In this document: piece after piece, positions 11,303-37,118 of the stretch
Numbering within the stretch: the first letter of the stretch is position 1
Layout: every line of letters starts with the position of its first letter
DNA from: Pseudomonadota bacterium
GTDB taxonomy: Bacteria > Myxococcota_A > UBA796 > UBA2385
Direction: 5' to 3'
Assembly (NCBI GenBank): GCA_046051725.1
Contig: JBJONS010000140.1
Location: forward strand, 1-37,118
Length of the DNA: 37,118 bases
Notes under the pieces: model-generated
Databases searched by the model: none
What the model was told of the DNA's origin: nothing
The model's input: the letters and a program-made list of their open reading frames with translations, nothing else
Translations under genes and position numbers: made by a program

Positions 11303-14127
<2,825 letters not shown>

Positions 14128-14279: not shown

Positions 14280-14286
14280 GCAAGAG

Positions 14287-14368
14287 TGCGCGAAGGGGGA
14301 CTCGAACCCCCACGAGTTGCCTCACTAGGCCCTCAACCTAGCGCGTCTACCAATTCCGCCATTCGCGC
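14287..14368 (-). tRNA. tRNA-Leu (anticodon GAG)
   Basis: Manual fold: 7-bp acceptor GCGCGAA/TTCGCGC, 3-bp D stem, anticodon stem CTAGG/CCTAG with loop TTGAGGG, long variable arm, T arm GGGGG-TTCGAGT-CCCCC. CCA is not encoded. Confidence 0.9.
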
Positions 14369-17220: not shown

Positions 17221-18224
17221 GCGACCTCCATCCCGCCGAGGCGGATTGCAAGGTCGATCATGCGGTTCGAGAACCCCCACTCGTTGTCGTACCAGGCCAG
17301 CACCTTGCCGGTGTGGCTGCCCATCGCCTGGGTCAGGGCCAGGTCGACGGTCGAGCTGTGGGCGTCGCCGATGAGGTCCGAGCTGACCAAGGGCAGGTCG
17401 CTGGCGGCGAGGATGCCCTTCATCGGGCCGTTCGCCGCGGCGATCAGCGCGTCGTTGATGGCCGCCACGCTGAGCGGACGCGTCGACTGGAAGACCAGGT
17501 CGACCAGCGAGACGTTGGCGGTCGGCACGCGGATGGCGAGGCCGTTGAGCTTGCCGTTGAGCTGCGGCAGCACCAGCCCGACCGCCGAGGCGGCGCCCGT
17601 CGAGGTCGGCACCATGTTGACCGCCGCGGCGCGGGACCGGCGCATGTCGTCGTGCGGCGCGTCCAGCAGGCGCTGATCCATCGTGTAGCTGTGGATGGTG
17701 GTCATCAGGCCGCTCTCGATGCCGAAGGCGTCGTCGAGCACCTTGGCGAAGGGCGCGAGGCAGTTGGTGGTGCAGCTCGCGTTCGAGACCACCCGGTGCT
17801 CGGGCCGCAGGCCGGCGTCGTTGACGCCCATCACCACGGTGTAGTCCTCGTCCTTGGCCGGGGCGCTGATGATGACCCGCTTGGCGCCGGCGTGGAGGTG
17901 CACGGCGGCCTGGCTGCGCTTGCGGAAGATGCCGGTGCACTCCATCACCACGTCGACCCCCTCAGCCGCCCAGGGCAGCTTGCTCGGGTCCTTCTCGGCG
18001 GTGACCGGGATGAGGCGCCCGCCGACCGAGATGCCGCCGTCGACCGCCTTGACCTCGGGCGCGAAGCGGCCGTGGACCGAGTCGAACTTGAGCAGGTGGG
18101 CCAGCATGTCGGGGCTGGTCAGGTCGTTGATGTGCACGAACTCGATCTCGGGGTTGCCCCAAGCCGCACGAAGCACGCAGCGGCCGATGCGGCCGAAACC
18201 ATTGAGAGCGACGCGAACGGCCAT
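17217..18224 (-). CDS. gap: Glyceraldehyde-3-phosphate dehydrogenase
   Basis: [15 protein letters not shown], catalytic [13 protein letters not shown]-terminal [11 protein letters not shown]. The ATG at 18224 is preferred over the ORF-track start at 18278. Confidence 0.95.
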
Positions 18225-18370
18225 CTTTTCACCTCGAGGTCGTGGAGGGTCGGCGCGCAGGGCGCGCGGGGCCCACAAAAGCGGGCGCGGCCTAACCCCG
18301 ACGCGCCCCCGCCGCCCCTCCTGGCGGGCGACGCGCCGACAACCGAGGAGGCGCGGGATAGCGGCCGCCC

Positions 18371-20032
18371 ATGTCGCTGCTCGTCGCCAACATCCCCTGG
18401 CCCGGCCCCGCGGGGGACCCCGCCCCCGCCATCCGGGCCCGCCTTCAGCTCCCGCCAGGCGCGGCGCTGCACCACGAGCTGGTGAAGCGCTCGGTGGACG
18501 GCCGCCGCCGGCCGCCGCAGTGGCTCGCGAACTACCGCGTCGAGCTCGAAGCGACCGCGCTCGAAGACCAGATCTTGCGCGCGCCGCCCCACGGCGTGCG
18601 CGCCTACAACGACCGCGACCATCAGCGTTTTGACCGCGAAGATCAGCCGGCCGACGCCGGCGCGAGCCCCGCGCGCTGGCCCGCCGGCCTGCGCCCCTTG
18701 GTCGTCGGCGCCGGCCCCGCCGGGCTGTTCGCCGCGCTGCGCTTCGGCGAAGCGGGCGCCCCCGCGGTGCTGCTCGAGCGCGGCGGCCCGGTCGAAGAGC
18801 GCCACCACGCCGTCCGCAAGTTCTGGCGCCACGCCGAGCTCGATCTCGACACCAACGTCGTCTTCGGTGAGGGCGGCGCGGGCGCCTTCTCGGACGGAAA
18901 GATCTACACCCGCCGGCGCGACGGCGAGCTGGGGTGGATCTTCCGGCGCCTCGTCGACTTTGGCGCCGACCCCGAGATCCTCGAAGAAGGCTGGGCCCAC
19001 CTCGGCACCGACCGCATCCGGGCCATCCTGCCCCGCATGCGGGCGCGGATCATCGAGCTGGGCGTCGAGGTGCGCTTCCACGCGGCCGTCGAGGGCCTGC
19101 TGGTCGAGGGCGGGCGCTGCGTGGGCCTGCGCCTCACCGGCGGCGAAGAGCTGCGGGGCGGCCCGGTCATCATGGCGACCGGCCACAGCGCGCGGGACGT
19201 CTGGGCGGCGATGCTCGAGGCGGGCGCGGCGGCCGAGCAGCGGCCCATCCACATCGGGGCGCGCATCGAGCACCCGCAGCAGATCATCGATCAGGCGCGC
19301 TACGGCACCGCGCGGGGTGAGCTGCCCCCGGCGTCGTACCGCCTGACCTCGCACCCGCGCGCGGGGCGCGGCGAAGAGCCGGCCCGCGCGGCCCACACCT
19401 TCTGCATGTGCCCCGGCGGCACGGTGGTCGGCGCCACCAACGAGCCAGGCCGCGTCGTGGTCAACGGCATGAGCTACAGCAAGCGCCAGGCGTGGTGGGC
19501 CAACAGCGCGGTGATCGTCGAGGTCCGGCCCGAGGACTACCCGGGCACCGACCCGCTGGCCGGGGCCCGCTACCAGGACGCCATCGAGCAGCGCGCGTTC
19601 GCGGCCGGCGGCGGCGGGTTCCGCGCGCCGGGGCAGCGGGTGGCCGACCTGCTCGCCGGCAAGGCCAGCGCCGAGCTCCCACGCACCTCGTACACGCTCG
19701 GCGTGACCCCGACCGACCTGCGCGAGGTGCTGCCGCCGCCCTTGGTCGCCGGACTGGTGGCGGCCATCCGCCACTTCGACCGGCAGATCCCCGGCTTCGC
19801 GGGAGAGGAGGGCGTGCTCATCGCGCCCGAGACCCGCACCACCGCCCCGCTGCGCTTCGCGCGGGGCGAGGACCTGGAGTCCCCCACCCTGCCCGGGCTG
19901 ATGCCGGTCGGGGAGGGTGCGGGCTACGCCGGGGGCATCGTGAGCGCGGCGCTGGACGGTGATCGCGCCGCGCGCTCGGTCATCGAGCGGGCCAGCGCGC
20001 TCGCCGCGCGAGACCGGGCCCCGACCGCGTGA
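18371..20032 (+). CDS. FAD-dependent oxidoreductase (COG2509-like uncharacterised flavoprotein)
   Basis: Dinucleotide-binding motif LVVGAGPAGLFAAL after a ~100-aa N-terminal domain, then a GGAGAFSDGK segment and C-terminal GEGAGYAGGI. Confidence 0.75.
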   Translation: MSLLVANIPWPGPAGDPAPAIRARLQLPPGAALHHELVKRSVDGRRRPPQWLANYRVELEATALEDQILRAPPHGVRAYNDRDHQRFDREDQPADAGASPARWPAGLRPLVVGAGPAGLFAALRFGEAGAPAVLLERGGPVEERHHAVRKFWRHAELDLDTNVVFGEGGAGAFSDGKIYTRRRDGELGWIFRRLVDFGADPEILEEGWAHLGTDRIRAILPRMRARIIELGVEVRFHAAVEGLLVEGGRCVGLRLTGGEELRGGPVIMATGHSARDVWAAMLEAGAAAEQRPIHIGARIEHPQQIIDQARYGTARGELPPASYRLTSHPRAGRGEEPARAAHTFCMCPGGTVVGATNEPGRVVVNGMSYSKRQAWWANSAVIVEVRPEDYPGTDPLAGARYQDAIEQRAFAAGGGGFRAPGQRVADLLAGKASAELPRTSYTLGVTPTDLREVLPPPLVAGLVAAIRHFDRQIPGFAGEEGVLIAPETRTTAPLRFARGEDLESPTLPGLMPVGEGAGYAGGIVSAALDGDRAARSVIERASALAARDRAPTA

Positions 20033-24790: not shown

Positions 24791-25231
24791 TCACTCCGCC
24801 GGCTGGGGAACCGTGAGCGGCTTGGACTCGAGCGCCCGCAGCGCGCGGCAGCCGGCCAGCGGCAGCGGCAGCTCTGGCGCGCAGCCCTCGCCGAGCACGA
24901 CCACCGCGCGCACGGTGTCGCCTGGCGCCAAGCGGACCGGCGCGGCGATCCGCATGCCGTCCGCGGGCACACGGGTGGTCGGCGTGGGCGCGCCACAGCC
25001 CGGCTGCGGGATCGAGAGGAAGCGGCCCGCGGTGGCGTCAAAACGTTGCCAGTCCACCGCCCGACAGCCGGGCAGGCTCAGGCCGCCCGCGCCGCGCAGC
25101 TCGACCGAGACCGCCGCGGGATCAAGCAACAGGACCGCCTCGGCGTCGGCCGCGGCTGCGGGCCCACTCAAGCCGAGGCTGAAGCTGAGGCCACAGATGA
25201 GGAGGCGAGCGGGGCGCAGCAGGCGGGTCAT
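24791..25231 (-). CDS. Hypothetical small secreted Cys-containing protein
   Basis: ATG at 25231 followed by signal-like MTRLLRPARLLICGLSFSLGLSGPAAAA. The 146-aa product has five Cys in the mature part and high GC3. It is divergent from the beta-barrel gene at 25657. Confidence 0.5.
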   Translation of the reverse strand: MTRLLRPARLLICGLSFSLGLSGPAAAADAEAVLLLDPAAVSVELRGAGGLSLPGCRAVDWQRFDATAGRFLSIPQPGCGAPTPTTRVPADGMRIAAPVRLAPGDTVRAVVVLGEGCAPELPLPLAGCRALRALESKPLTVPQPAE

Positions 25232-25656
25232 CGGGGCTCCACGATCCACCGCCACGTCTATCGCGCGCGGCGCGCGGCCGGGGCGCGCCGCCCCATCGAG
25301 CGTTCTCAGCGGCGCAGCACCGGCGGATCGAGCATCGCGTTTTTGCGATCTTGCCCCTTCATTCCAATCAATCCACGGCCCCACCACAGAGGGCGCGCGA
25401 CCCTGCCCCTGGAGGAGCGCCCTGCGTTATAGTCCGCCGACCCTTACGCACCCGCCGTCCGCGGGGGCGCGAGGGGCCGCGGCGTGGCACCCTCGCGAGC
25501 GCTTCGCCGACCCCGACCGCCCAGCCGGGACGCGGCGTGCGCTACACTCCGCGCGCCGATTGCGCCCCGAATCCAGTGCCGCGGCTGACCCCGCGCTGCT
25601 CCCCAGCTCAGCATCCCCTCGGCCCCGCGACCCGGAGCCCCAGGAGAACACCCCTG

Positions 25657-26469
25657 ATGCGCGCCCCTCTCCAGCTCCTGGCCCCCTTGCTGGCCATCGT
25701 CGGGTTGGCCACGGCATCCCCCGCCGCGGAGGCGGGAGCCAAACCCGCGACCGACGCGATGGATGAGCTCAACAACGGCCGGCCGAAGTACAACGTCGTC
25801 CAGAACCGGTTCTTCCTGAAGGAGAACCGCATCGAGCTCTCGCCGGTCGTTGGCTACGTGCCGAACAACCCCTTCGCCAAGCGCTACGTCGGCGGGCTGC
25901 TCGGGGCGTACCACTTCAGCGAGACCCTCGCGGCCGAGGCCGCGTTCATGTACTCGCCTGACCTGGGCACCGGCGACCTCAAAGGGCTGACCACCACGCT
26001 GGTGAGCATCGCCCACGAGGGCACCGACCAGGGCTTCCAGCAGCCGATCGAGAAGATGATCCTCGGGGCCACCTTCGCGGCCCGCTGGGCGCCGGTCTAC
26101 GGCAAGATCAACCTGCTGGGCGAGCGGGTGCTCAACTTCGACCTGTACGGCGTGGCGGGCCTCGGCCTGCTCTCGATCAACGAGTACTACGCCACCTACA
26201 CCGAAGAGGGCGGGGTCCCCTCGGCTTCGCTGGGCACGGCGATCAAGAAGAACAAGGTGCCGGTGAACCTCGGGCTGGGCATGGACTTCTTCGTGAGCAG
26301 CAGCGTGGCCGTCAAGATCGACGCGCGCAGCTACCTCTACCTCGACAAGAAGCCCCAGTACGATCCCGACGTCGCGGTTGAGGAATCGCGCCTCTACAAC
26401 AACTTCATCGCGTCGGCAGGTGTGAGCGTCTTCTTCCCGAAGATGAAGCCCCGCCAGTACGACTTCTGA
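25657..26469 (+). CDS. Outer-membrane beta-barrel protein, GltA/NfsA-like (myxobacterial OMP beta-barrel type)
   Basis: AGGAG Shine-Dalgarno sequence, signal peptide MRAPLQLLAPLLAIVGLATASPAAEA, alternating beta-strand pattern, and a C-terminal aromatic end (...VSVFFPKMKPRQYDF). It is a clear paralogue of the next gene. Confidence 0.8.
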   Translation: MRAPLQLLAPLLAIVGLATASPAAEAGAKPATDAMDELNNGRPKYNVVQNRFFLKENRIELSPVVGYVPNNPFAKRYVGGLLGAYHFSETLAAEAAFMYSPDLGTGDLKGLTTTLVSIAHEGTDQGFQQPIEKMILGATFAARWAPVYGKINLLGERVLNFDLYGVAGLGLLSINEYYATYTEEGGVPSASLGTAIKKNKVPVNLGLGMDFFVSSSVAVKIDARSYLYLDKKPQYDPDVAVEESRLYNNFIASAGVSVFFPKMKPRQYDF

Positions 26470-26493
26470 GCCCGGCTCCGCGAGGATCACAAC

Positions 26494-27399
26494 ATGCGTA
26501 TGATCAACACACTCGTAGGGATCGGGGCGTTCAGCGCGGCGTGCAGCCTCGGCGTCGCGCGCGCGCAAGACGCGGCCGCGACGGACGCAGCGACCGTCGC
26601 GCCGGCGCCGGCCGCTGAGGCCGGTCTCGCCAACGACGGCCTCGCCGACGAGCTGGACGACGTGCTCAAGGGCCCTGACCCGGGCAGCGAGTCCACCGAC
26701 TCCGAGCAGACCGTCGACGAAGAGCCCGCCGCCACCCCGGCGCCCATCGCGCTCGACGAGGACGGCAAGCGCAAGAAGACGGTCATCAAGACCCTGGCCC
26801 GGAAGAACTTCCTCAAGCTGGGCCGCTTCGAGGCGTCGCCGCACGCCGCCTTCGTCGCCAACGACCCCTTCCTCAACCGCTACATCGTCGGCACGGGCTT
26901 CGGCTACCACATCACCGAGGTGTTCGCGGTCGAGACCTCGATCGACTTCGCGCCCGACCTCGGCGAAGGCGACTGGAAGCCGCTGACCACGCAGCTGGTC
27001 ACCGAGAACAACGTCTCGCCCGACATCTCGAAGCTGACGCTCTTCGGCGCGGCCACCTTCCAGTACTCGCCGATCTACGGCAAGGTCGCGGTGGTGGGTC
27101 GCAACATCGTCAACTTTGACGTGTACGGCGCCTTCGGCATGGGGTTCACCCGCACGACCGACGACCTCACCGCTCTCGGCGCCGAGGACGACCCGCGGGC
27201 CCAGATCACCCAGTTCCAGACCCACCCGACCACCAACTTTGGCGGCGGCCTCCGCATCATCTTCGGTGAGAGCATCGCTGCGCGCGTCGAGGCCCGCTCG
27301 TTGGTCTACATCGAGACGGTGAACGCCACGACCCTGGAGATGAAGAACAACCTCATCCTCCAAGGCGCGGTCTCCTTCTTCTTCCCGAACATGAAGTGA
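26494..27399 (+). CDS. Outer-membrane beta-barrel protein, GltB/NfsB-like, paralogue of the preceding gene
   Basis: Signal peptide MRMINTLVGIGAFSAACSLGVARA followed by an acidic A/P/D-rich N-terminal linker. It shares motifs with the upstream barrel (NRFFLKxxRxExSP / PDLGxGDxKxLTTxLV / YGKxxxxGxxxxNFDxYG / VSxFFPxMK). Confidence 0.8.
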   Translation: MRMINTLVGIGAFSAACSLGVARAQDAAATDAATVAPAPAAEAGLANDGLADELDDVLKGPDPGSESTDSEQTVDEEPAATPAPIALDEDGKRKKTVIKTLARKNFLKLGRFEASPHAAFVANDPFLNRYIVGTGFGYHITEVFAVETSIDFAPDLGEGDWKPLTTQLVTENNVSPDISKLTLFGAATFQYSPIYGKVAVVGRNIVNFDVYGAFGMGFTRTTDDLTALGAEDDPRAQITQFQTHPTTNFGGGLRIIFGESIAARVEARSLVYIETVNATTLEMKNNLILQGAVSFFFPNMK

Positions 27400-27449
27400 C
27401 CCGGCCGCGCCCCGCGAGCGCCGGCCCCGCGTCTGCTCTGGAGCACCGC

Positions 27450-29321
27450 ATGACCTCCGACCGACTCCACAAGGCCTCCCCCGTGCTGCTGGGCGGGCTG
27501 TCTTCGCTCGCGCTGCTGTGGGCCCCCCAAGCGCGGGCCCTCTCCTGCGACGACATCATGAACATGGTCTCGGTGAACGTGCCCGAGAACATCATCGTGA
27601 TGACCGTGAAGGACTCGGGCGAGCAGTTCACCAATGACGAGGTCAAGTGCTTGACGGAGCGCGGCGCGCCCGCGACGGTCATCAAGCAGGCCAAGTCGAT
27701 GACCGCGGCCGAGCCCGAGGTCGGCCCGACCGTGGCCCCCGACGAGGGTCCGCAGCGCAGCGCGCTCGACGAGGGCGACGACACGCTCGGCACCCGCGTC
27801 GACCGGACCAAGTCCAAGGACCTCGCCGACGAGGGCGAGGCCAGCGACGCCGACGAGCCGGCCAAGCTCAAAGAGGCCGTCAAGCAGTACCGCGCCAAGA
27901 AGCCGCTGGCGGCTTCGCTGCTGCTGTTTGAGCTCGTCGAGGCGGGCAACTTCGACCCCAAGCACGAGGCCAAGGTCGACTACTACATGGCCCGCTCGCT
28001 CGAGTCGCTCGAGCTGTGGCACACCTCGCAGTACCACTACATGAAGGTGGTCAAGAAGGGCCCGCAGGACCCGTACTTCAACTACGCCCTGCCGAAGCTG
28101 GTCAAGATCGCGCGGTACACCGGCGACGACACCGAGCTGTCCCGCATCGTGTCGCAGATCCCGACCGACGCCTTCCCGAGCGGCGCCCAGAGCGAGATGT
28201 TCTACCTCCTGGGCGTGCAGGCCTTCGAGGACGACGACCTCAGCAAGGCCCGCAAGTACTTCGGCCAGGTGTCGACCAAGTCCCCGCTCTTCCTCAAGAG
28301 CGAGTACTTCCGCGGCGTCATCTACAACCAGCAGAACAAGCTCAAGAGCGCCGTTCGCAGCTTCCGCGACGTGTACCGGGCCCAGGCCGAGGTCACCAAC
28401 GACCCGCGGTACCTCAAGGAGGTCGAAGAGGTCAAGGACCTCGCCCTCATCAACGTCGCCCGCGTCTACTACGGCATCGAGCGCTACGACGAGGCCGGCA
28501 ACTACTACGAGCTGGTCAACCGCGAGAGCAGCTACTGGGCACAGTCCGTCTTCGAGCACGGCTGGGCCAACTTCATGCAGAACAACCTCAACGACACCCT
28601 GGGCCAGCTGCTCACGGTGCGCAGCGGCTTCTTCAAGGACGACGAGTGGCTGCCTGAGGCCCCGATCCTCCGGGCGTTGACCTACTTCAACCTCTGCGAG
28701 TACAACCGCGTCGACGCGACCCTGCTCACCTTCGACCAGTACTACAAGCCGATGCTGGCCGAGATGCAGGACTTCACCAAGCAGTACGCGTCGGACGAGG
28801 GCAAGAAGCTCGCCGACCAGGCCTGGGACACGTACTTCGGAAAGGACAAGAAGAACCAGACCCTGCTGCCCAAGTCCTTGTTCAACAAGATCTTGCGGAA
28901 CCAGGAGCTGACCGGCCTCGTGCGCCACATGGCCATCATGGACCAGGAGCAGGAGCTCATCGGCCGCCAGCAAGAGCGCTGGGCCGACGCGATGACCCCC
29001 TACCTGACCAAGATCCTCGAGAAGGACCGCGAGCGCTACAAGCGGCGCGCCGGCATGCTCCTCCTCAAAGAGATGGTCCGCCAGTCCAACAAGCTCGCCG
29101 ACCTGATGTCGCAGTCGCAGATCATCCGCTTCGAGGTCGTGGACGCCCAGCGCGTGGACTACGCCTACAAGGCGCAGAACGACGAAATCGGCGACGCGCT
29201 CAACACGGTCAACGTCGACTTCGCGACCGCGGTCGAGTTCATCTACTGGCCGTTCAACGGCGAGTTTTGGAAGGATGAGCTCGGCTACTACCACTACACG
29301 GAACAGGGTTCCTGCAAGTAG
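27450..29321 (+). CDS. Secreted TPR-repeat protein, GltC/NfsC-like
   Basis: GGAG upstream of ATG 27450, signal peptide ...LALLWAPQARA, then a small two-Cys module, an acidic linker and a Y/F/K/E-rich helical-repeat body. It is third in the cluster. GTG 27396, which overlaps the upstream stop, is an alternative start. Confidence 0.7.
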   Translation: MTSDRLHKASPVLLGGLSSLALLWAPQARALSCDDIMNMVSVNVPENIIVMTVKDSGEQFTNDEVKCLTERGAPATVIKQAKSMTAAEPEVGPTVAPDEGPQRSALDEGDDTLGTRVDRTKSKDLADEGEASDADEPAKLKEAVKQYRAKKPLAASLLLFELVEAGNFDPKHEAKVDYYMARSLESLELWHTSQYHYMKVVKKGPQDPYFNYALPKLVKIARYTGDDTELSRIVSQIPTDAFPSGAQSEMFYLLGVQAFEDDDLSKARKYFGQVSTKSPLFLKSEYFRGVIYNQQNKLKSAVRSFRDVYRAQAEVTNDPRYLKEVEEVKDLALINVARVYYGIERYDEAGNYYELVNRESSYWAQSVFEHGWANFMQNNLNDTLGQLLTVRSGFFKDDEWLPEAPILRALTYFNLCEYNRVDATLLTFDQYYKPMLAEMQDFTKQYASDEGKKLADQAWDTYFGKDKKNQTLLPKSLFNKILRNQELTGLVRHMAIMDQEQELIGRQQERWADAMTPYLTKILEKDRERYKRRAGMLLLKEMVRQSNKLADLMSQSQIIRFEVVDAQRVDYAYKAQNDEIGDALNTVNVDFATAVEFIYWPFNGEFWKDELGYYHYTEQGSCK

Positions 29322-29335
29322 TGTCAGGCCGATGT

Positions 29336-29361
29336 GAGGCCGCCCAGAAGCGGGCGGCCTC
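29336..29361 (+). promoter_or_regulatory. Intercistronic stem-loop (perfect 10-bp GC-rich stem, 6-nt loop) without a U tract
   Basis: GAGGCCGCCC (29336-29345) / GGGCGGCCTC (29352-29361), located 15 nt after the stop of the GltC-like gene and 67 nt before the next start. Confidence 0.5.
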
Positions 29362-29428
29362 CTTCGTGCTCCCTCCCCCTTGATCGACCCCTTCGTCCCT
29401 CTCGGGACCCCCGGATCCGAGGCTGCCC

Positions 29429-32400
29429 ATGAAGCGCTCTCCCCTCGTCAGCACCGTCGTCGCCCTGGCGCTCGGTGTGGTGACCCCCGTCGTCGCTCCC
29501 GGAGTGCTGGTCCCCGCAGCGTGGGCGCAGGCCCAAGACGCCAAGAAGGACGAGCGGCGGGTGCTCAAGGTTGACGAGGTGCAGACCACCTCGAAGTCGG
29601 ACGCCTACCGCCAGATGGCCCGGACCAAGCGGCACGAGTCCATCAAGATGCTCAAGAGCATCCTGTCGGACAGCCCGCCGCAGGGCACGCAGAAGGCCGA
29701 GATGCTGCTGCGTCTCGCCGAGCTCTACTTCGAAGAGCACCGCGACCTGCGCATCGACGAGGAGGCGACCCACGTCGCCAACATCGACAAGTGCTTCAAC
29801 ACGCCGGGCTGCGACACCGACGGGATCAAGGCCAACTACGCCGCGAGCCGCGGGTGGGCCGAGAAGGCCGTGGTCCTGTACCGGCAGGTGCTCGACAACT
29901 ACCCGCAGTACCAGCGGGCCGACGAGGCGACCTTCTACTTGGCCTCGACGCTGTCGGGCATCGACGAGCGGGACAAGGCGAACGAGGAGTACACCCGCCT
30001 CGTGCGGTCGTACCCGAACTCCAAGTTCCTCTCGGCCGCCTACGTGCAGATCGGCGAGTACCACTTCGACAACAACGCGGCGTTTAAGGCGCTCGGCGCC
30101 TACAAGCAGGCGACCCTCGACAAGGGCGGCGAGTGGTACGCCTTCGCGAACTACAAGCTCGCGTGGTGCTACTACAACGTCAGCGAGTACGGCAAGGCCA
30201 TCGAGACGATGAAGCACGTCGTCGCCTTCTCGATGACGGGCGCGGAAGGCCAGTCCGAGGCCGACGCCAAGAAGCGGGTCAACCTGCAGGAAGAGGCGCT
30301 CAAAGACCTCGTCCGCTTCTTCGCCGACGCCGGCGAGCTCGACGAGGCCTACGACTACCTGGTGAAGCTGGGCCGCAAGGACCTCATCCGCACCATGCTC
30401 AAGCGCCTCGCGGCGACCTACTTTGAGCAGGGCAAGTTTGAGCAGTGCATCCAGACCTACCGGCGGCTCATCGCGGACAACCCGCAGAGCCCCGAGGCGC
30501 CCGAGTACCAGAACGAGATCATCGGCGCATTCCAGAAAATGGGCCGCAAAGAAGAGACCTCGCAAGAGATCGAGCGGCTCCGCAAGGACTACGGCAAGTC
30601 TTCGGCCTGGGCCCGCGCCAACTCGGCGAACCAGGACGCGGTCAAGGCAGCCCGTGAGTACCTCGAGAAGAACCTGCGGACCGTCGCGGTGAACTACCAC
30701 GGCGAGGCGCGGAAGCTGGGCACCGGCGCGCGCGCGGTCGAGGCCTACAAGTTCGCCGGCGAGGCCTATGCGGTCTACCTTGACGAGTTCCCCGACGGCA
30801 AGTTTGTGTACCAGATGCGGTACGAGTACGGCGAGCTCCTCTACAAGCTCAAGCGCTTCCCCGAGGCCTACGACCAGTTCATGGCCGTGGTCAAGCTCGA
30901 CGCCAACGGGAAAGAGTCCCAGTTCTGCGCCCGCTCCGCTGTCTTCTCTGCCGAAGAGGTGATCAAGCAGGAGGAGAAGGCCGGCAAGATCCAGAAGGCG
31001 AGCAAGGGCAACACCTCGCAGCTGCCGCTCAACCCGTGGGAAGAGAAGAAGCTCGCCGCGCTCGACCAGTTCTCGAAGCTCTACCCCACGCACGAAGACA
31101 CCAAGGGGATGATCTACGAGGCGGGGTACATCTACTACGACAAGAACCGCTTCAAGGACGCCTCTGACCGGTTCCGGACCGTCATCACGATGGATCCGAA
31201 GTCCAAGCAGGCGATGCAGGCGGCGAACCTCATCGTCGACAGCTTCGCGCTGGTCGAGGACTACGAGAACCTCAAGGACGTCTCGAAGGCCTTCTACGAG
31301 CAAGAGAGCCTCGGGAACGCCGAGTTCAAGAAAGAGATGCTCGGCGTCTACGAGAAGGCGTCGCTCAAGCTGGTCGACGTGAACTTCCAGAAGGACAAGG
31401 ACCAGAACAAGGCGGCCGTCGCCTACATGGCCTTCTACAAGGAGTTCCCGAAGTCCGAGGACGGCGACTTCGCGCTGAACAACGCCGCCTTCTACTTCTA
31501 CCAGACCGGCCAGGCGGGCAAGTCGATGGAGGCCCGCCACGCCCTCATCGAGAACTACCCGAAGTCGAAGTTCTGGAAGGACCAGGTCGCGGCCCTGGGC
31601 TTCGACTACGAGTCGATCGCTGACTTCGACACCGCGGCGACCTGGTACGAGAAGCTGTTCGAGACCGACCCGGCCTTCGCCAAGTCGAAAGAGGCGCTGT
31701 TCTCCGCGGCGCTGTTCCGCCGCGCGCAGCGCCAGAACGGCAAGTCGGTCGAGAACCTCACCAAGTTCCGCACGACCTACGCCGACGACGCGCGCTCTGT
31801 CGCCATCCCCCTCGACATCGCCGCGCTCTACGAAGAGGACAAGAACTGGGACGAGGCGTCCCGCTGGTACATGGACTTCTTCATGAAGCCGCCGGCCGGC
31901 GCAAGCGTGGAGCAGACCTTCTTCGCCCGCCTCAAGTACGGCAAGGCGCTCGAGGCCAGCAACCAGACCGCGAAGGCCGACAAGCACTGGAAGGAGACCG
32001 TCGCGGCCTACGACGCGGCGGTGGCCAAGGGCACCGACCTCGGCGCGTCTGCCGCCTTCGTGGCTGAGATCAAGTACAAGTTGGCCAAGCCGCTGCTCGA
32101 CCGCTACCTCGCGATGAAGATCTCGGGCCCCGGAAAGAAGATGTCCGAGGCGCAGACCAACAACGTCCTCAAGGACCAGCTGGTCGGCAAAATCAAGGTG
32201 CTCGGCGAGGTGGAGGCCACCTACGCCAACATCCTCAAGATGCAGGCCGGTGAGTGGGGTCTGGCGTCGCTGGTGCAGCTTGGCAAGGCCTACGAGGACA
32301 TGTCCGAGAGCCTGCTCAAGTCCTACATCCCCGAGTACCTGACCGACGATCAGAAAGAGATCTACCGGATGGGCCTCGAGGACAAGGCCTACGTGCAGGT

Positions 32401-32599
32401 CGACAAGGCCATCGCGGCCTACGCCGAGGGCCTCAAGAACGCCTACGAGCTGAACCTCTACAACGACAACACCGCGTACGCGACCCGCCGCCTCGGCGAG
32501 CTGCGCCCCGACGACTACCCCGTGCTCGTCGAGGAGCTGTCGGAGGCCCGCTTCACCGCGCGGTCCTCGTCTGGCCGCACCTTCGAGACCCAGCCCTGA
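29429..32599 (+). CDS. Large secreted TPR-repeat protein, GltD(AgmU)/NfsD-like
   Basis: Signal peptide MKRSPLVSTVVALALGVVTPVVAPGVLVPAAWA. The 1056-aa product is made of repeated helical hairpins rich in Y/A/K/E/F (for example AEMLLRLAELYFE, YPNSKF..AYVQIGEYHF, YPKSKFWKDQ). It is fourth in the cluster. Confidence 0.72.
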   Translation: MKRSPLVSTVVALALGVVTPVVAPGVLVPAAWAQAQDAKKDERRVLKVDEVQTTSKSDAYRQMARTKRHESIKMLKSILSDSPPQGTQKAEMLLRLAELYFEEHRDLRIDEEATHVANIDKCFNTPGCDTDGIKANYAASRGWAEKAVVLYRQVLDNYPQYQRADEATFYLASTLSGIDERDKANEEYTRLVRSYPNSKFLSAAYVQIGEYHFDNNAAFKALGAYKQATLDKGGEWYAFANYKLAWCYYNVSEYGKAIETMKHVVAFSMTGAEGQSEADAKKRVNLQEEALKDLVRFFADAGELDEAYDYLVKLGRKDLIRTMLKRLAATYFEQGKFEQCIQTYRRLIADNPQSPEAPEYQNEIIGAFQKMGRKEETSQEIERLRKDYGKSSAWARANSANQDAVKAAREYLEKNLRTVAVNYHGEARKLGTGARAVEAYKFAGEAYAVYLDEFPDGKFVYQMRYEYGELLYKLKRFPEAYDQFMAVVKLDANGKESQFCARSAVFSAEEVIKQEEKAGKIQKASKGNTSQLPLNPWEEKKLAALDQFSKLYPTHEDTKGMIYEAGYIYYDKNRFKDASDRFRTVITMDPKSKQAMQAANLIVDSFALVEDYENLKDVSKAFYEQESLGNAEFKKEMLGVYEKASLKLVDVNFQKDKDQNKAAVAYMAFYKEFPKSEDGDFALNNAAFYFYQTGQAGKSMEARHALIENYPKSKFWKDQVAALGFDYESIADFDTAATWYEKLFETDPAFAKSKEALFSAALFRRAQRQNGKSVENLTKFRTTYADDARSVAIPLDIAALYEEDKNWDEASRWYMDFFMKPPAGASVEQTFFARLKYGKALEASNQTAKADKHWKETVAAYDAAVAKGTDLGASAAFVAEIKYKLAKPLLDRYLAMKISGPGKKMSEAQTNNVLKDQLVGKIKVLGEVEATYANILKMQAGEWGLASLVQLGKAYEDMSESLLKSYIPEYLTDDQKEIYRMGLEDKAYVQVDKAIAAYAEGLKNAYELNLYNDNTAYATRRLGELRPDDYPVLVEELSEARFTARSSSGRTFETQP

Positions 32600-32625
32600 G
32601 CGCCGGAAGAGAGAGGAGCACGCAC

Positions 32626-34128
32626 ATGTTCAAAATCAATACCCTGGCGCTCGTCATCGCCCTCGGCCTGAGCTCGACCGTCCTCACCGGCTGCCCCAAG
32701 CAGACCGCGCCCACCGAAGGCGTGGTGGATCCCACCGCGGCCTTCCTGGCCGGCGTCAAGCTGCTGCAGGAGCCCGGGAAAGACGGCACCATCGACTACG
32801 GCGCGGCCTACACCCAGTTCAACACCGCGGCGACGGCCAAGCCCGACTTCGCGAAGGCCCAGTACAACGCCGGTTGGACCGCCGAGCAGCTCGGCAAGCT
32901 CGCCGACGCCGAGCAGCACTACCGCAAGGCGCTGACCGCAGACCCCAACAACGGCGACACCGCCTTCGCCCTCGCCGACGTGCTGACCCGCCAAAAGAAG
33001 GCGGCAGAGGCCGTCACCCTGTTCAAGGGGCGGGTCGACGCCAACGCCGATGACCTCAAGAGCCGCAACGCGCTCATGGAGGCGCTGGTCGCCTCCGAGC
33101 AGCACGATGACGCCATCGAGCAGGCCAAGCAGATCCTGCTCCGCGACTCGAAAAACGTCAACGCGTACCGGAACCTGTCGCGGCTCTACTTCGCCAAGGG
33201 CGAGTACAAGCTGAGCCAGCTGTGCGCCGAGAAGGCCAAGGAGCTCGCCGCAGGCGACTCCGGCATCTACAACAACATCGGCGTCACGTTCCTGGTCATG
33301 GGCGAAGAGGCCTCGGCCATCGACGAGTTCAAGACCGCCATCAAGCTCGATCCAGACAACGTCGAGGCCAACCTCAACCTCGGCTACGTCGCGCTGAACT
33401 CGGGCGACTTCATGCTGGCCCGGACCGCCTTCGAGGCCGCGCTGCAGGGCGAGCCTGGCAACATCGACGGCAAGCTCGGCATGGCGGTCGCGCTCCGCGG
33501 CCTCAAAGAGTACGACCAGAGCGGCAAGCTCTACGATGAGGTCATCAAGGCGGACCCCCGGAACCAGAAGGCCTACTTCAACGCCGCCACCTTGTACGAG
33601 AAGTACGTCAAGGACTACAAGCGCGCCGAGAAGGTCCTCCAAGAGTTCATCAACGCGAACAACAAGGATGGCTCGATCGGCCCGGCCCACGAGGTCTTCC
33701 AGCGCATCGACCGCATCAAAGAGTCGCAGCAGATCGAGGAGGCCCGCCTCCGCGAAGAAGAGCGCAAGAAGAAGGAGGCCGAGGAGCGCAAGAAGCGCCA
33801 AGAGGCCGAGCTCGACAAGCTCAAGACCAAGCTCGCCGAGCTCAAGGCTATCGCCGAGAAGTACCAGGCCTGCGAGGCCTTCGCGATGGGTGTGGGCGAA
33901 GAGGCCAAGATGGTCATCGAGAACGCCCAGATGGTCGTCGAGGCCAACGACGCTGAGATGGCGGGCGACGTGTCGACCTTCGTCGATCAGATCCTGCCCA
34001 TGGCCACCGAGGCGGCCGCGGCCTGCGGGGGCGCCGCTCCCGCCCCCGCTCCGGCGGAGGGTGGCGCGCCCGCGGCGCCCACCGAGCCCGCGTCGGCCGA
34101 GCCCGCGCCGGCGCCCGCGCCCCAGTAG
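32626..34128 (+). CDS. TPR-repeat lipoprotein, GltE(AglT)/NfsE-like
   Basis: GAGAGGAG Shine-Dalgarno sequence and lipoprotein signal MFKINTLALVIALGLSSTVLTGC. Canonical TPR units (AQYNAGWTAEQLGKLADAEQHYRKALTADPNN, AYRNLSRLYFAKGEY, AIDEFKTAIKLDPDNVEANLNLGYV), then a charged coiled coil and an A/P tail. Confidence 0.72.
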   Translation: MFKINTLALVIALGLSSTVLTGCPKQTAPTEGVVDPTAAFLAGVKLLQEPGKDGTIDYGAAYTQFNTAATAKPDFAKAQYNAGWTAEQLGKLADAEQHYRKALTADPNNGDTAFALADVLTRQKKAAEAVTLFKGRVDANADDLKSRNALMEALVASEQHDDAIEQAKQILLRDSKNVNAYRNLSRLYFAKGEYKLSQLCAEKAKELAAGDSGIYNNIGVTFLVMGEEASAIDEFKTAIKLDPDNVEANLNLGYVALNSGDFMLARTAFEAALQGEPGNIDGKLGMAVALRGLKEYDQSGKLYDEVIKADPRNQKAYFNAATLYEKYVKDYKRAEKVLQEFINANNKDGSIGPAHEVFQRIDRIKESQQIEEARLREEERKKKEAEERKKRQEAELDKLKTKLAELKAIAEKYQACEAFAMGVGEEAKMVIENAQMVVEANDAEMAGDVSTFVDQILPMATEAAAACGGAAPAPAPAEGGAPAAPTEPASAEPAPAPAPQ

Positions 34129-34156
34129 CCGCGCCCGTCGCTGGACCGGCTCCCTT

Positions 34157-34196
34157 CGCCCGCCTCCACATCCAGTGGGGCGGGCGTTCGGTTTTT
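34157..34196 (+). terminator. Rho-independent terminator after the GltE-like gene
   Basis: Stem CGCCCGCC (34157-34164) / GGCGGGCG (34179-34186), extended by CCAC/GTGG inside the loop, followed by TTCGGTTTTT. Confidence 0.65.
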
Positions 34197-34803
34197 CAAC
34201 CCGCAGAGGCCGCCCTCGCCCGCAGCGCACGACGCCTCCCAGGCCTGCGCCCCGCGGGCAAGCAGGCCCCGTGGGCGCGGCGGCACCCGCGGATCGCCCG
34301 CCCAGCACAGGCCAGCTCCGGTTCGGCGCGGCCCGGGGCCCGGAGCCGACAGGGCGATCCCCACCAGGGCGACGATCCGGATCGGTCCGCCCACGCCCCG
34401 TGGAAACTCGCGCTGAACGGGAACCAACAGGAGGCGCCCCTTGTCGAACATGCCGTGGAGGGGACGAAATGATCACGACAAGTGACGGGCCCCCGGTGGT
34501 AGACTCGGGCCGCACGATCACCTCCGGCATGCGCGGCGGACTGCGAGATGGGCGTCACTGCGCATGGCCAGAAGCCAACGGCCCACCGTCGGCCTCCCCG
34601 CCCCGCCGCGAAGGCCGGCCCCCATTTCAGGCTTGACGGAGACCTTGCAGTAGCCGTCCATGTCCTCAGCCGCTCTCCGACAGTTTCAACCACAAACCTC
34701 GCTGCCCGCTGGGCTGGTCCCCTTTCCCTGGCCGCCCGCTGCTGGTAGTGTCCGCTGCCACGGCCCTTTGCTCCCCGCGAGGGCCCCCGAACCCGAGGTC
34801 GTC

Positions 34804-35085
34804 ATGTCCATCCGCACTGCCCCACGTGTCCTCGTGATCGCCCTGCTCAGCCTCGCGGCCCCCTCGGCCTTCGCGCAAGATGACGAAGAGTCCGGCGACG
34901 GCAAGAAGGTCCAGTACAAGGCGAAGACCGAGATCGACTTCGAAGGCTTGGACGTCTCGGGCGAGCTCGTCAAGCCCGCCGGTTCGGTGGTCGCCGAGAC
35001 CAAGCGCGCAGCCTTCAACCCGTTGATCCGGCTCCGCACCGACTTCGCACAAGAGATGGTCGAGTCCGTGGACGAGATCAAGTAG
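34804..35085 (+). CDS. Small secreted protein, GltF/NfsF-like by position and size
   Basis: GAGG Shine-Dalgarno sequence, signal peptide MSIRTAPRVLVIALLSLAAPSAFA, and a 93-aa product with an acidic mature N-terminus. It lies immediately upstream of the GltG-like gene. The in-frame ATG at 34660 would bury the signal peptide. Confidence 0.55.
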   Translation: MSIRTAPRVLVIALLSLAAPSAFAQDDEESGDGKKVQYKAKTEIDFEGLDVSGELVKPAGSVVAETKRAAFNPLIRLRTDFAQEMVESVDEIK

Positions 35086-35142
35086 TCTGCGCCCACTCGG
35101 CAGCGGCAACGCCCCGACCAGTTTTCGCAAAAGGAACGACCC

Positions 35143-37118
35143 ATGGGTAACCCCGGAAAGATCGTCCTCGTCTTCGAAGTCTACGAAGGCGGAGAGTTTC
35201 AGCGCCGCGAGGAGCTCTCGGCCGAGAGCGTCACCATCGGCCGCGGCGTCGCGGCCATGCTGCGCATCGACAGCCCCGCCCTCGCGGACCTTCAGGCCGT
35301 GATCAACGTCGGTGACGACGGTGAAGTGCGCCTCCTCGACGTGGTCGGGGCAGACGGCGGAACCAAGGTCAACGGCGCTGCAGTGAACAACTGCGTGCTC
35401 CGCACCGGCGACGAGATGGCCTTCGGCAGCGTCCGCGTGAAGGTCGCCGTCATCGACGCAGGCGCCTTCTCGGATGATGAGGCCACCCAGCTCGGCAAGG
35501 TGGTCGACCTCAGCAAGGGCGCCGTCGCCGCCGCGCCGGCAGCCGCCCTCGAGCGCGCCGCATCGGCCAACGATGACGAGGATGAAGACGACGCCAGCGA
35601 GTCCGAGGTGTCCGAGGACGTCGTTGCGTTCATCATGCGCTCTGGCACGTCCACGAGCGACGCCGGCATCGACAAGAAGCTGCCGAAGGTGCTTGAGGTC
35701 GCCGAGGCGTGGTCGAACACGCTGCTCGAGGTCAAGCACTTTCCGAAGGGGCATCCGGCCGTCACCGTGGGCTCGAGCACGGGCACCCGGTGGCGCTTCC
35801 TCGGACTCCCCATCGCATGGGTGCCGTCCGCGGCCAGCTACGTCGCGTGGCTGGCGGGCCCGACGATCTCCGAGACGACCGAAGAGTGGAAGAACGACTT
35901 CTACGGTCCGCCCGAGAACATGCCCGACGCCGACTTCAAGCTCTTTGAGTCGTCCGGTGGCGGCTTTGTCGCCAACATCAGCGACAAGTGGACTGGTTTC
36001 GTCGATGTGGGCGAAGAGCGCCACAGCTTCCAGCAGCTGATCGCGGCGGGCAAGGCCAAGGCCAGCGGCGCCGGCGTGTACCAGGTCGAGATCACCGAGG
36101 ACACGCGGCTCTTCGCCGATACTGGCCACGTCTACTTCTTCGGCCAGATGGTGCACCCAAGCAAGCGGGTCGTCTCCAACATGACCGACGGCATCGACTA
36201 CCCCTTCCTGGGGTCGATGACGTTCATGTCCTTCGTGTTCTTCCTCCTCTCCTACGTGTACGTGGTCTCGCCGACGCCTCCCGAGCCGGAGATGGTCGAG
36301 ATCCCCGACCGCTTCGTCGAGCTCGTCCTTGAAGAGCCGCCTCCGATCGAGGAGCCGAAGAAGGAGCAGTCCAAGCCCGATGCCAACCCCGACGCCGGCG
36401 AAGGCGCCAAGGCCAAGGGAGAAGAGGGCAAGGTCGGCAAGAAAGACGCCAAGATGAAGGAGGCCAAGGGCGACAAGGTCGCGGCCAACAAGCAGCAGCT
36501 CGACAAAGAAGTGGCCGAGAACGCCGGCGTTCTCGGTGCGCTCCGCGACGGCGGCAGCTCGATGGACGGCTTCGGCAGCTCGGCGCTGAACTCCGACCTG
36601 ACCGGCGGCATCGGTGGCTTGGTCGGTGCCAAGGGCACCCAGATGGGCTCGGGCGGTCTGGGCTCGCGCGGCGGCGGCCTCGGCGGCGGCGGCACGGCCG
36701 AGGGCCTCGGCGGGCTCGGCACCAAGGGCCGTGGGTCGGGCGCTTCGGGCTACGGCACGGGCGGTGGCAACTTCGGCTCCCGCGGAGAGGGCGGCATCGG
36801 CAAGATCGGCGGCGACCCGATCATTCTCGGCGCCCTCGACAAGAGCCTCATCGACGCCGTCATCAAGCGGAACATGAACCAGATCCGCTACTGCTACCAG
36901 CGCGAGCTGACCAAGAACCCCAGCCTCGGCGGTAAGGTGACGGTCAAGTTCGTCATCGCCAAGGACGGCACGGTGTCCAAGGCCGAGATCAAGCAGGGCA
37001 TGGGCAGCGCGGCGGTGGAGAGCTGCATCTCCGGCCGGTTCATGCGCTTCAAGTTCCCCGAGCCGAAGGGCGGCGGCATCGTCATCGTGTCGTACCCCTT
37101 CATCTTCAGCCCGGGCTA
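35143..37118 (+). CDS. Bitopic inner-membrane protein with an FHA-like N-domain, Gly-rich linker and AgmX/PglI-type TonB-C-like C-terminal domain (GltG/NfsG-like); runs to the window edge
   Basis: Not in the ORF track because no stop lies inside the window; I translated it by hand. The frame is open for 658 codons and the last partial codon is TA, probably the stop. It contains VTIGRG...KVNG...GDEMAFG, one TM helix (FLGSMTFMSFVFFLLSYVYVV, ~36196-36267), a K/E-rich and then G-rich region, and C-terminal DPIILGALDKSLIDAVIKRNMNQIRYCYQRELTKNPSLGGKVTVKFVIAKDGTV. Confidence 0.75.
   Translation, partial: MGNPGKIVLVFEVYEGGEFQRREELSAESVTIGRGVAAMLRIDSPALADLQAVINVGDDGEVRLLDVVGADGGTKVNGAAVNNCVLRTGDEMAFGSVRVKVAVIDAGAFSDDEATQLGKVVDLSKGAVAAAPAAALERAASANDDEDEDDASESEVSEDVVAFIMRSGTSTSDAGIDKKLPKVLEVAEAWSNTLLEVKHFPKGHPAVTVGSSTGTRWRFLGLPIAWVPSAASYVAWLAGPTISETTEEWKNDFYGPPENMPDADFKLFESSGGGFVANISDKWTGFVDVGEERHSFQQLIAAGKAKASGAGVYQVEITEDTRLFADTGHVYFFGQMVHPSKRVVSNMTDGIDYPFLGSMTFMSFVFFLLSYVYVVSPTPPEPEMVEIPDRFVELVLEEPPPIEEPKKEQSKPDANPDAGEGAKAKGEEGKVGKKDAKMKEAKGDKVAANKQQLDKEVAENAGVLGALRDGGSSMDGFGSSALNSDLTGGIGGLVGAKGTQMGSGGLGSRGGGLGGGGTAEGLGGLGTKGRGSGASGYGTGGGNFGSRGEGGIGKIGGDPIILGALDKSLIDAVIKRNMNQIRYCYQRELTKNPSLGGKVTVKFVIAKDGTVSKAEIKQGMGSAAVESCISGRFMRFKFPEPKGGGIVIVSYPFIFSPG

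Follow-up and report, generated by a model that had tools for sequence, protein, structure and literature searches.

In the Myxococcus xanthus model of the Agl-Glt machine, GltG acts as a transducer of the TolA/TonB type: its membrane helix contacts the AglR5QS proton channel, its disordered periplasmic segment wraps GltD, and its TonB-C-like domain binds the GltD N terminus; GltE binds the GltD C terminus, GltF bridges GltG and GltD to GltC, and GltC docks on GltA and GltB (PMC11761067, PMC3169522, PMC3858216). Second names are in use for some parts, as CglF is GltF (PMC4488436) and CglE is GltH (PMC9946355). The Nfs system, which serves spore-coat assembly, is encoded contiguously in the order A-B-C-D-E-F-G(-H) and has no I, J, or K paralogues (PMC3858216). 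The Glt and Nfs paralogues of M. xanthus are 23 to 42% identical (Wartel 2013 Table S1), and the glt/nfs duplication has been placed in a terminal branch (PMC3858216). Contiguous glt order is also found in the merged Anaeromyxobacter clusters and in Haliangium ochraceum Hoch_3957-3964 (Luciano 2011 Table S3; PMC3169522). Here, we describe a seven-gene block in a 37,118-nucleotide stretch of DNA (contig JBJONS010000140.1 of assembly GCA_046051725.1; the whole stretch is called the window below). The block is a divergent new member of the well-described Glt/Nfs family, from an uncultured Myxococcota lineage and with the ancestral contiguous organization, and it most likely encodes the force-transducing, envelope-spanning part of a machine of that family. 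The finding is solid, if not surprising to a specialist, and the contiguous order itself is not new, as nfsA-H, Anaeromyxobacter, and Haliangium are already arranged so.

Seven genes with homology to gltA to gltG

Raw open reading frame lists were swamped by spurious frames because the G+C content of the window is high (70 to 79%). Genes were called on the + strand, from 25657 to the window end, by the periodicity of third-codon-position G+C (GC3) and then by translation. Seven co-directional genes, g1 to g7, occupy 25657 to 37118:

g1, 25657-26469, + strand: 270 amino acids, signal peptide; GltA/B-like outer-membrane beta-barrel
g2, 26494-27399, + strand: 301 amino acids, signal peptide, acidic N-terminal extension; second GltA/B-like outer-membrane beta-barrel
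g3, 27450-29321, + strand: 623 amino acids, signal peptide; GltC-like periplasmic or outer-membrane-associated connector
g4, 29429-32599, + strand: 1056 amino acids, Sec signal peptide, no lipobox, tetratricopeptide repeats (TPR); GltD-like, periplasmic
g5, 32626-34128, + strand: 500 amino acids, lipobox LTGC, TPR, coiled coil, Pro/Ala-rich tail; GltE-like lipoprotein
gltE-gltF spacer, 34129-34803, noncoding: contains a 17-nucleotide motif at 34633-34649
g6, 34804-35085, + strand: 93 amino acids, signal peptide; GltF/CglF-like small periplasmic protein
g7, 35143-37116 (stop codon cut at 37118), + strand: 658 amino acids; GltG-like bitopic inner-membrane transducer

A sequence-only reading of the window had described seven co-directional genes, two paralogous barrels followed by C-D-E-F-G-like proteins, and GC3, translation, and the alignment of g1 with g2 confirm that description. 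It had also described the gaps as short throughout, which is incorrect: from g1 to g7 they measure 24, 50, 107, 26, 675, and 57 bp, the long one lying between g5 and g6. We consider g7 complete, because the window end cuts off only the last base of its stop codon (TA remains), and the last residues match those of full-length relatives.

Family models match six of the seven proteins (g1, g2, g3, g5, g6, and g7). Both barrels pass the cutoff of 60 bits for OMP_myx_plus (TIGR04565), g1 with 103 bits and g2 with 90 bits, and g2 also matches Pfam OMP_b-brl at 29.3 bits. The two are paralogous (33% identity over 243 amino acids, E 6e-39) and lie directly upstream of g3. The connector g3 matches the GltC model NF033756 over profile positions 54 to 619 of 622 (E 1.6e-66, 225 bits, equivalog cutoff 450) and has weak TPR matches in Pfam. 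For g5, the GltE model NF033758 is covered end to end (E 6.8e-46, 157 bits, cutoff 225), and for g6, the CglF model NF033764 is covered from position 5 to 88 of 88 (E 2.7e-16, 59 bits, cutoff 90). Moreover, both are reciprocal best hits of their counterparts in Myxococcus sp. Y35, g5 of GltE at 27% identity (E 7e-36) and g6 of GltF at 38% identity (E 4e-14).

The GltG-like protein g7 consists, in order, of a forkhead-associated (FHA) domain (Pfam, residues 30 to 95), a central domain, a single hydrophobic membrane helix at about residues 355 to 376, a linker that is first Lys rich and then Gly rich (49 Gly in 160 residues), and a TonB-C-like domain. It matches the GltG model NF033760 over positions 5 to 647 of 650 (E 3.2e-98, 330 bits, cutoff 650) and passes the AgmX/PglI C-terminal domain model NF033768 (109 bits, cutoff 40); a match of 34 bits to the GltJ model comes from the common C-terminal domain only. 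The protein is the reciprocal best hit of Y35 GltG and is collinear with true GltG proteins, including the membrane helix and the GTKGRG-containing Gly-rich linker, and the C-terminal domain is about 50% identical. When a profile of that domain was compared with the PDB, all 13 matches were TonB C-terminal domains (best E 0.0011). PDB sequence searches with g4 and g7 returned generic TPR and FHA proteins only.

For g4, no Glt-specific model responded in the NCBIfam search, and the matches were to generic TPR models. The validated GltD of Myxococcus sp. Y35 gives the same generic matches, and thus NCBIfam simply has no GltD model. That the Y35 locus is truly glt is shown by the downstream genes, which exceed the curated cutoffs (GltE 745, CglF 140, GltG 1095, and CglE, or GltH, 176 bits). 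Reciprocal searches paired g4 with Y35 GltD as best hits in both directions (28% identity over 1082 amino acids, E 5e-91 and 2e-97). Altogether, g4, g5, g6, and g7 are the reciprocal best hits of Y35 GltD, GltE, GltF, and GltG, and both barrels and the C-terminal domain of g7 answer to the models that the sequence-only reading had named for them. Its proposal that the block matches GltA-G/NfsA-G in content and order is thereby supported, six proteins by profile and g4 by the reciprocal hit to GltD.

Gene order and distribution

A search of all 50%-identity cluster representatives placed g4 in a GltD family of 952 clusters at E<1e-30. A tree was built from the full-length family matches, and a bootstrapped distance tree was used for placement. 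There, g4 and its relatives form a clade with 100/100 support that excludes the GltD anchors of the Cystobacterineae, which form a 100/100 clade of their own. Source labels give the relatives as metagenome-assembled genomes of Myxococcota or "Deltaproteobacteria," some probably mislabeled, and several come from seawater or other aquatic samples. Thus, taking the phylum from the source labels, the clade of g4 is a large and well-supported one, made up of Myxococcota that are uncultured and for the most part aquatic.

Contigs with g4 homologues were collected as L-numbered loci, to which a metagenome scan added 80. GltD proteins 98% and 94% identical to g4 occur on Logan contigs of about 12.6 kb. 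Gene order is the same as in the window in L001, its closest relative with downstream sequence (86% GltD identity), in L002 and L003 (67%), and in L084 to L086 (53 to 56%). Identity per protein in these contigs is uniform over the seven genes, at 64 to 93% across L001 and L002; g1, for example, is 93% identical to its L001 counterpart and 69% to that of L002. Among the metagenome loci of the window's clade (41 to 75% GltD identity), the order is A-B-C-D-E-F-G-H wherever the flanks allow it to be read. The cluster is far beyond chance: the seven-gene order is identical in L001, L002, L084 to L086, and several dozen metagenome loci. More distant contiguous A-B-C-D-E-F-G-H clusters also occur in metagenomes (L155/L156 with a G+C content of 0.42, L164 with 0.58, and others within L141 to L166), and their GltD proteins are as distant from g4 as from Myxococcus GltD (26 to 31% identity in both comparisons). 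Since these metagenomes differ so much in G+C content, the contiguous arrangement is widespread beyond the window's clade.

The named genomes are arranged differently. Fetched via the clade of longer GltD-family proteins, 80 loci of Myxococcaceae and Archangiaceae (including M. xanthus AM003, Myxococcus sp. Y35, Corallococcus, Archangium, and Cystobacter) have GltD proteins at 26 to 32% identity to g4, and all 80 carry a split gltD-E-F-G without A-B-C upstream, in contrast to the contiguous block of the window. In the scan of these named-genome contigs, every glt locus was split, and neither an nfs locus nor one of the Anaeromyxobacter type turned up.

What follows gltG was read in the relatives. 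The sequence-only reading had looked to a second TonB-like gene, GltJ or NfsH like, just past g7, but the relatives have a GltH/CglE-like barrel there instead, and in L002, L084, and L086 this eighth gene scores above the cutoff of the CglE/GltH model. In L001, the gene after gltG (17953-18909) encodes an unrelated 318-amino-acid protein with no homologue in the other fetched loci. In the genome of the window, too, the gene after gltG may thus be one other than GltH. After the GltH-like gene, most relatives encode a lipoprotein of 373 to 408 amino acids with choice-of-anchor D/DUF1573/ASH Ig-like domains (L002 18581-19807, L084 18682-19848, and L086 18340-19461), which could act with the machine at the cell surface. 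The window itself has no TonB, GltH, or choice-of-anchor D homologue.

Upstream of the barrels lies a further gene, g0:

g0, 24791-25231, - strand: 146-amino-acid secreted protein with four conserved Cys, divergently transcribed

In at least 10 independent loci, a g0 homologue (29 to 44% identity) is the gene immediately upstream of barrel A and is read from the opposite strand, even where the context farther upstream differs. No Pfam or NCBIfam model matched g0, and a single-sequence AlphaFold model was unusable (mean predicted local distance difference test score of 33.8). We note that g0 is probably a subclade-specific accessory gene of the cluster.

A predicted force transducer and its alternatives

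With the Agl-Glt machine of M. xanthus, the window shares homologues of GltC, GltD, GltE, GltF, and GltG, with GltA/B shared at the family level, and their domain architectures and lengths are the same. GltG is collinear, its TonB-C-like domain is conserved, and GltH is present in relatives. On the other hand, identities to the Glt proteins are only 27 to 38% (against Y35), under the NCBIfam orthologue cutoffs, and g4, with 1056 amino acids and by sequence not a lipoprotein, is shorter than the Myxococcus-type GltD of about 1190 to 1218 amino acids. M. xanthus also has GltI, GltJ, GltK, CglB, and motor genes, none of which is in the window. Among the contiguous systems outside the Myxococcus-type arrangement, Haliangium Hoch_3957-3964 and Anaeromyxobacter have barrel(s)-C-D-E-F-G like the window, and Hoch_3961 (D), compared by length and annotation, has 1058 amino acids, close to g4. 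The Haliangium F and G proteins differ from the window's, as Hoch_3963 (F) has 185 amino acids and Hoch_3964 (G) has 474 and is annotated only as a TonB family protein.

How the block would work can be read from the M. xanthus model. By homology, domain architecture, collinearity with true GltG, and conserved gene order, the window appears to hold the complete set of outer-membrane platform, connector, shaft in the periplasm, and transducer in the inner membrane; which proteins touch, which motor drives them, and what the cell gains from it we infer by analogy. In this scheme, g7 would sit in the inner membrane, and its helix would couple to a TolQR/ExbBD-type proton channel encoded outside the window. 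The Gly-rich periplasmic linker and the TonB-C-like domain of g7 would engage g4 (GltD), which with the lipoprotein g5 (GltE) would form the periplasmic shaft. The small g6 (GltF) would bridge GltG and GltD to g3 (GltC), and g3 would dock onto the outer-membrane platform of the paralogous barrels g1 and g2, such that proton flow through the motor might be turned into directed movement of that platform. The cluster is probably a proton-motive-force-driven surface-transport or gliding transducer, and surface gliding or the movement of a surface polymer would be its most probable outputs. The single membrane helix, long flexible periplasmic linker, and TonB-type C-terminal domain of g7 are also those of TonB/TolA systems, in which ExbBD or TolQR supplies power, and a TolQ/ExbB-type proton channel is the predicted power source for g7 too. 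Unlike TonB and TolA, g7 has a cytoplasmic FHA domain and a Gly-rich instead of a Pro-rich linker, and its predicted partners are dedicated periplasmic TPR proteins and barrels, not TonB-dependent transporters.

Several observations weigh against assigning the block to a Glt/Nfs-type transducer. The sequence-only reading had noted that the Glt and Nfs machines are driven by a TolQR/ExbBD-like channel, and a scan for motor genes, which covered the 37-kb window, found no TolQ/ExbB or TolR/ExbD gene in it. GltH, GltI, GltJ, GltK, and CglB were not found in the window either, although GltI, GltJ, GltK, and CglB may lie elsewhere in the genome. All four equivalog scores (GltC, GltE, CglF, and GltG) fall under their cutoffs, and therefore the homology of these proteins to the M. 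xanthus motility proteins is clear, whereas orthology is not demonstrable. The separation of g4 from Myxococcus-type GltD has full bootstrap support. The putative match of the barrels to GltA/B (NfsA/NfsB) is at the family level, through OMP_myx_plus. Finally, M. xanthus itself has paralogous clusters with a nonmotility function (nfs) or an unassigned one (G4 and G5) (PMC3169522). The sequence-only reading had allowed that the block might be a divergent member of the family, and the four scores and the separate clade show that caution to have been right.

The same divergence raises the possibility that the block is a Glt-like paralogue with a different output, like G4 and G5 of M. xanthus; its cargo could be a protein, a lipid, or some other component of the surface. 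In M. xanthus, glt is not replaced by its paralogues (PMC3169522), the subclade has the accessory g0, and its relatives keep the choice-of-anchor D lipoprotein after GltH, all of which, with the subthreshold scores and the 100/100 clade of g4, would suit a machine put to another use. G4 and G5, however, are reduced and reordered (Luciano 2011), whereas the full Glt/Nfs set from A to H is here in order, and any bacterium with AglRQS and GltA-G has been considered a potential glider (Luciano 2011, PMC3169522). We regard a different output as possible but on the unlikely side.

How the machine is powered is a separate matter. In at least 18 loci, a block of exbB, exbD, tonB, a gene for an Oar/MxcH-like receptor with TonB_C, CarboxypepD_reg, and Plug domains, and a lipoprotein gene immediately precedes barrel A on the same strand:

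exbB-exbD-tonB block: L084 124-5778; L086 721-6016; L085 2858-5639; L088, L091-L096, L102, L104, L106, L115, L119, L125, L134, L139, L143

This arrangement suggests that the clade's machine could be powered by the linked ExbB-ExbD pair instead of an AglRQS-type trio, with the adjacent short TonB-like protein as the GltJ analogue, and that the window's lineage merely separated the two blocks. The linkage holds down to 42% GltD identity, the ExbB and ExbD proteins score higher on the TolQ and TolR models than on those of ExbB and ExbD (116 versus 90 bits and 92 versus 62 bits), and linkage of motor and glt genes is ancestral in the core complexes of Bdellovibrio, Geobacter, and gammaproteobacteria (PMC3169522). 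But there is only one ExbD/TolR gene where Agl motors have two, and the block looks like an ordinary ExbB-ExbD-TonB operon that includes a TonB-dependent receptor of the MxcH/Oar type. Moreover, housekeeping genes downstream (L3-like, coenzyme A transferase, and guaB) are equally syntenic in the relatives, and thus general collinearity suffices to explain why exbBD and glt are linked. The block is also absent from the window and from L001. We think a linked ExbBD motor quite unlikely. Similarly doubtful, and built on the same loci, is a broader proposal: the large, mostly aquatic, uncultured Myxococcota clade would have a distinct Glt-like variant derived from an ancestral supercluster with a single ExbB-ExbD pair, short TonB-like protein, Oar/MxcH-like Plug protein, and lipoprotein, with g0 and the choice-of-anchor D lipoprotein after GltH as accessories. 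Its motor would be of the ExbBD type and not of the AglRQS type, and in the variant, surface transport or gliding might be tied to secretion or to transport that depends on TonB.

The block could alternatively be an Nfs-type machine, which would not serve gliding but move secreted polysaccharide around the cell, for instance to assemble a spore coat. A contiguous A-to-G(H) order without GltI, GltJ, and GltK is the organization of nfsA-H as it is of the window (PMC3858216), and the identity of the window to Glt lies in the same range as that of Nfs to Glt. The contiguous order, however, is also that of Anaeromyxobacter glt and Haliangium Hoch_3957-3964, and therefore looks ancestral and not Nfs specific. 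NfsB, NfsC, and NfsD have 442, 512, and 1219 amino acids, compared to 301, 623, and 1056 in the window, a comparison with Nfs by lengths and published identities only, and no distant contiguous cluster from the metagenomes matches the Nfs gene lengths. Whereas the glt/nfs duplication belongs to a terminal branch (PMC3858216), g4 lies in a separate deep clade, and the window's clade is aquatic, uncultured, and without evidence of sporulation, in contrast to the role of NfsA-H in the spore coat. We consider an Nfs-type function very unlikely. With true Myxococcus GltF as the seed, a homology search found GltF orthologues only, all at least 69% identical, and no Nfs. A candidate NfsD (P0198, 1217 amino acids, 27% identity to GltD) was set aside, as the search seeded with it led to another uncultured lineage.

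A Tol-Pal/CpoB- or BamD-related envelope maintenance module is hardly credible and as a reading of g4 is effectively refuted: g4 does reach the tol_pal_ybgF cutoff (94 versus 90.1 bits) and matches BamD and CpoB, but the score is summed over five to six repeated TPR stretches in a 1056-amino-acid protein where CpoB/YbgF has about 260, the validated GltD also matches ybgF (114 bits) and is the reciprocal hit of g4, no TolB or Pal is nearby, and five neighbors match Glt-specific models.

A Glt/Nfs-type transducer therefore is the reading we retain. The cluster adds a well-documented, complete, contiguous transducer of this type from a deep, apparently abundant clade of uncultured Myxococcota, with its 952 GltD-family clusters at 50% identity and dozens of syntenic loci. 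It lends support to the idea of an ancestral contiguous order from A to H, with the split Myxococcus arrangement derived. Compact and diverse sequence sets of this kind could sharpen models, based on coevolution or on structure, of force transmission across the envelope. What is known of the mechanism is unchanged by the cluster, and the cellular output is one that we infer.

The gltE-gltF spacer and neighboring genes

The spacer between gltE and gltF, 675 bp in the window, is long in close relatives too. Within 34129-34803, there was no coding periodicity, conserved open reading frame, remnant of a GltF paralogue, or Rfam family; no sigma-70 consensus promoter was seen, and terminator-like sites were at background level. 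The spacer does contain the 17-nucleotide motif TTGACGGAGACCTTGCA at 34633-34649, with the element TTGACGG-N4-CTTGCA, and the motif is kept in about 10 related loci: it is exact in L001, L002, L088, and L089, has one or two mismatches in L084, L096, L097, L108, and L115, and always lies 83 to 192 bp upstream of gltF. It fits no consensus spacing for sigma-70, sigma-54, or extracytoplasmic function (ECF) sigma factors, the latter two judged by inspection. The motif is a candidate promoter or regulator site, and its conservation upstream of gltF suggests that gltF and gltG form a separate transcription unit. In some relatives, the spacer holds a second GltF-like paralogue of 85 amino acids (L084 14855-15112; L115 at about 14935).

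The first 24.7 kb of the window is housekeeping: nadB, pyrE, a TRAP transporter, guaB, tRNA-Leu, secG-tpiA-pgk-gap, a GT2 glycosyltransferase, and others. A tRNA-Leu(GAG) gene at 14286-14368 (- strand), between guaB and secG, is the sole Rfam/ARAGORN match in the window. G+C content falls from 0.72 to 0.79 in positions 1 to 25000 to 0.63 to 0.69 across the glt block (25000-37118). GC3 in the block is 0.86 to 0.95, the same as in flanking genes, and the drop is confined to codon positions 1 and 2. The unchanged GC3 rules out horizontal transfer as the cause, and thus the drop reflects the amino acid composition of periplasmic proteins rich in Lys, Glu, Asn, and Tyr and not a foreign origin. We note that in the window guaB and a gene for a TatT-like TPR protein (11303-14127) precede the cluster by about 12 kb, but they lie downstream of it in L002 (20681-23147), L084, and L086. 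The change of side points to a rearrangement with breakpoints flanking the g0-to-gltG block, and thus the block appears to have moved as a unit.

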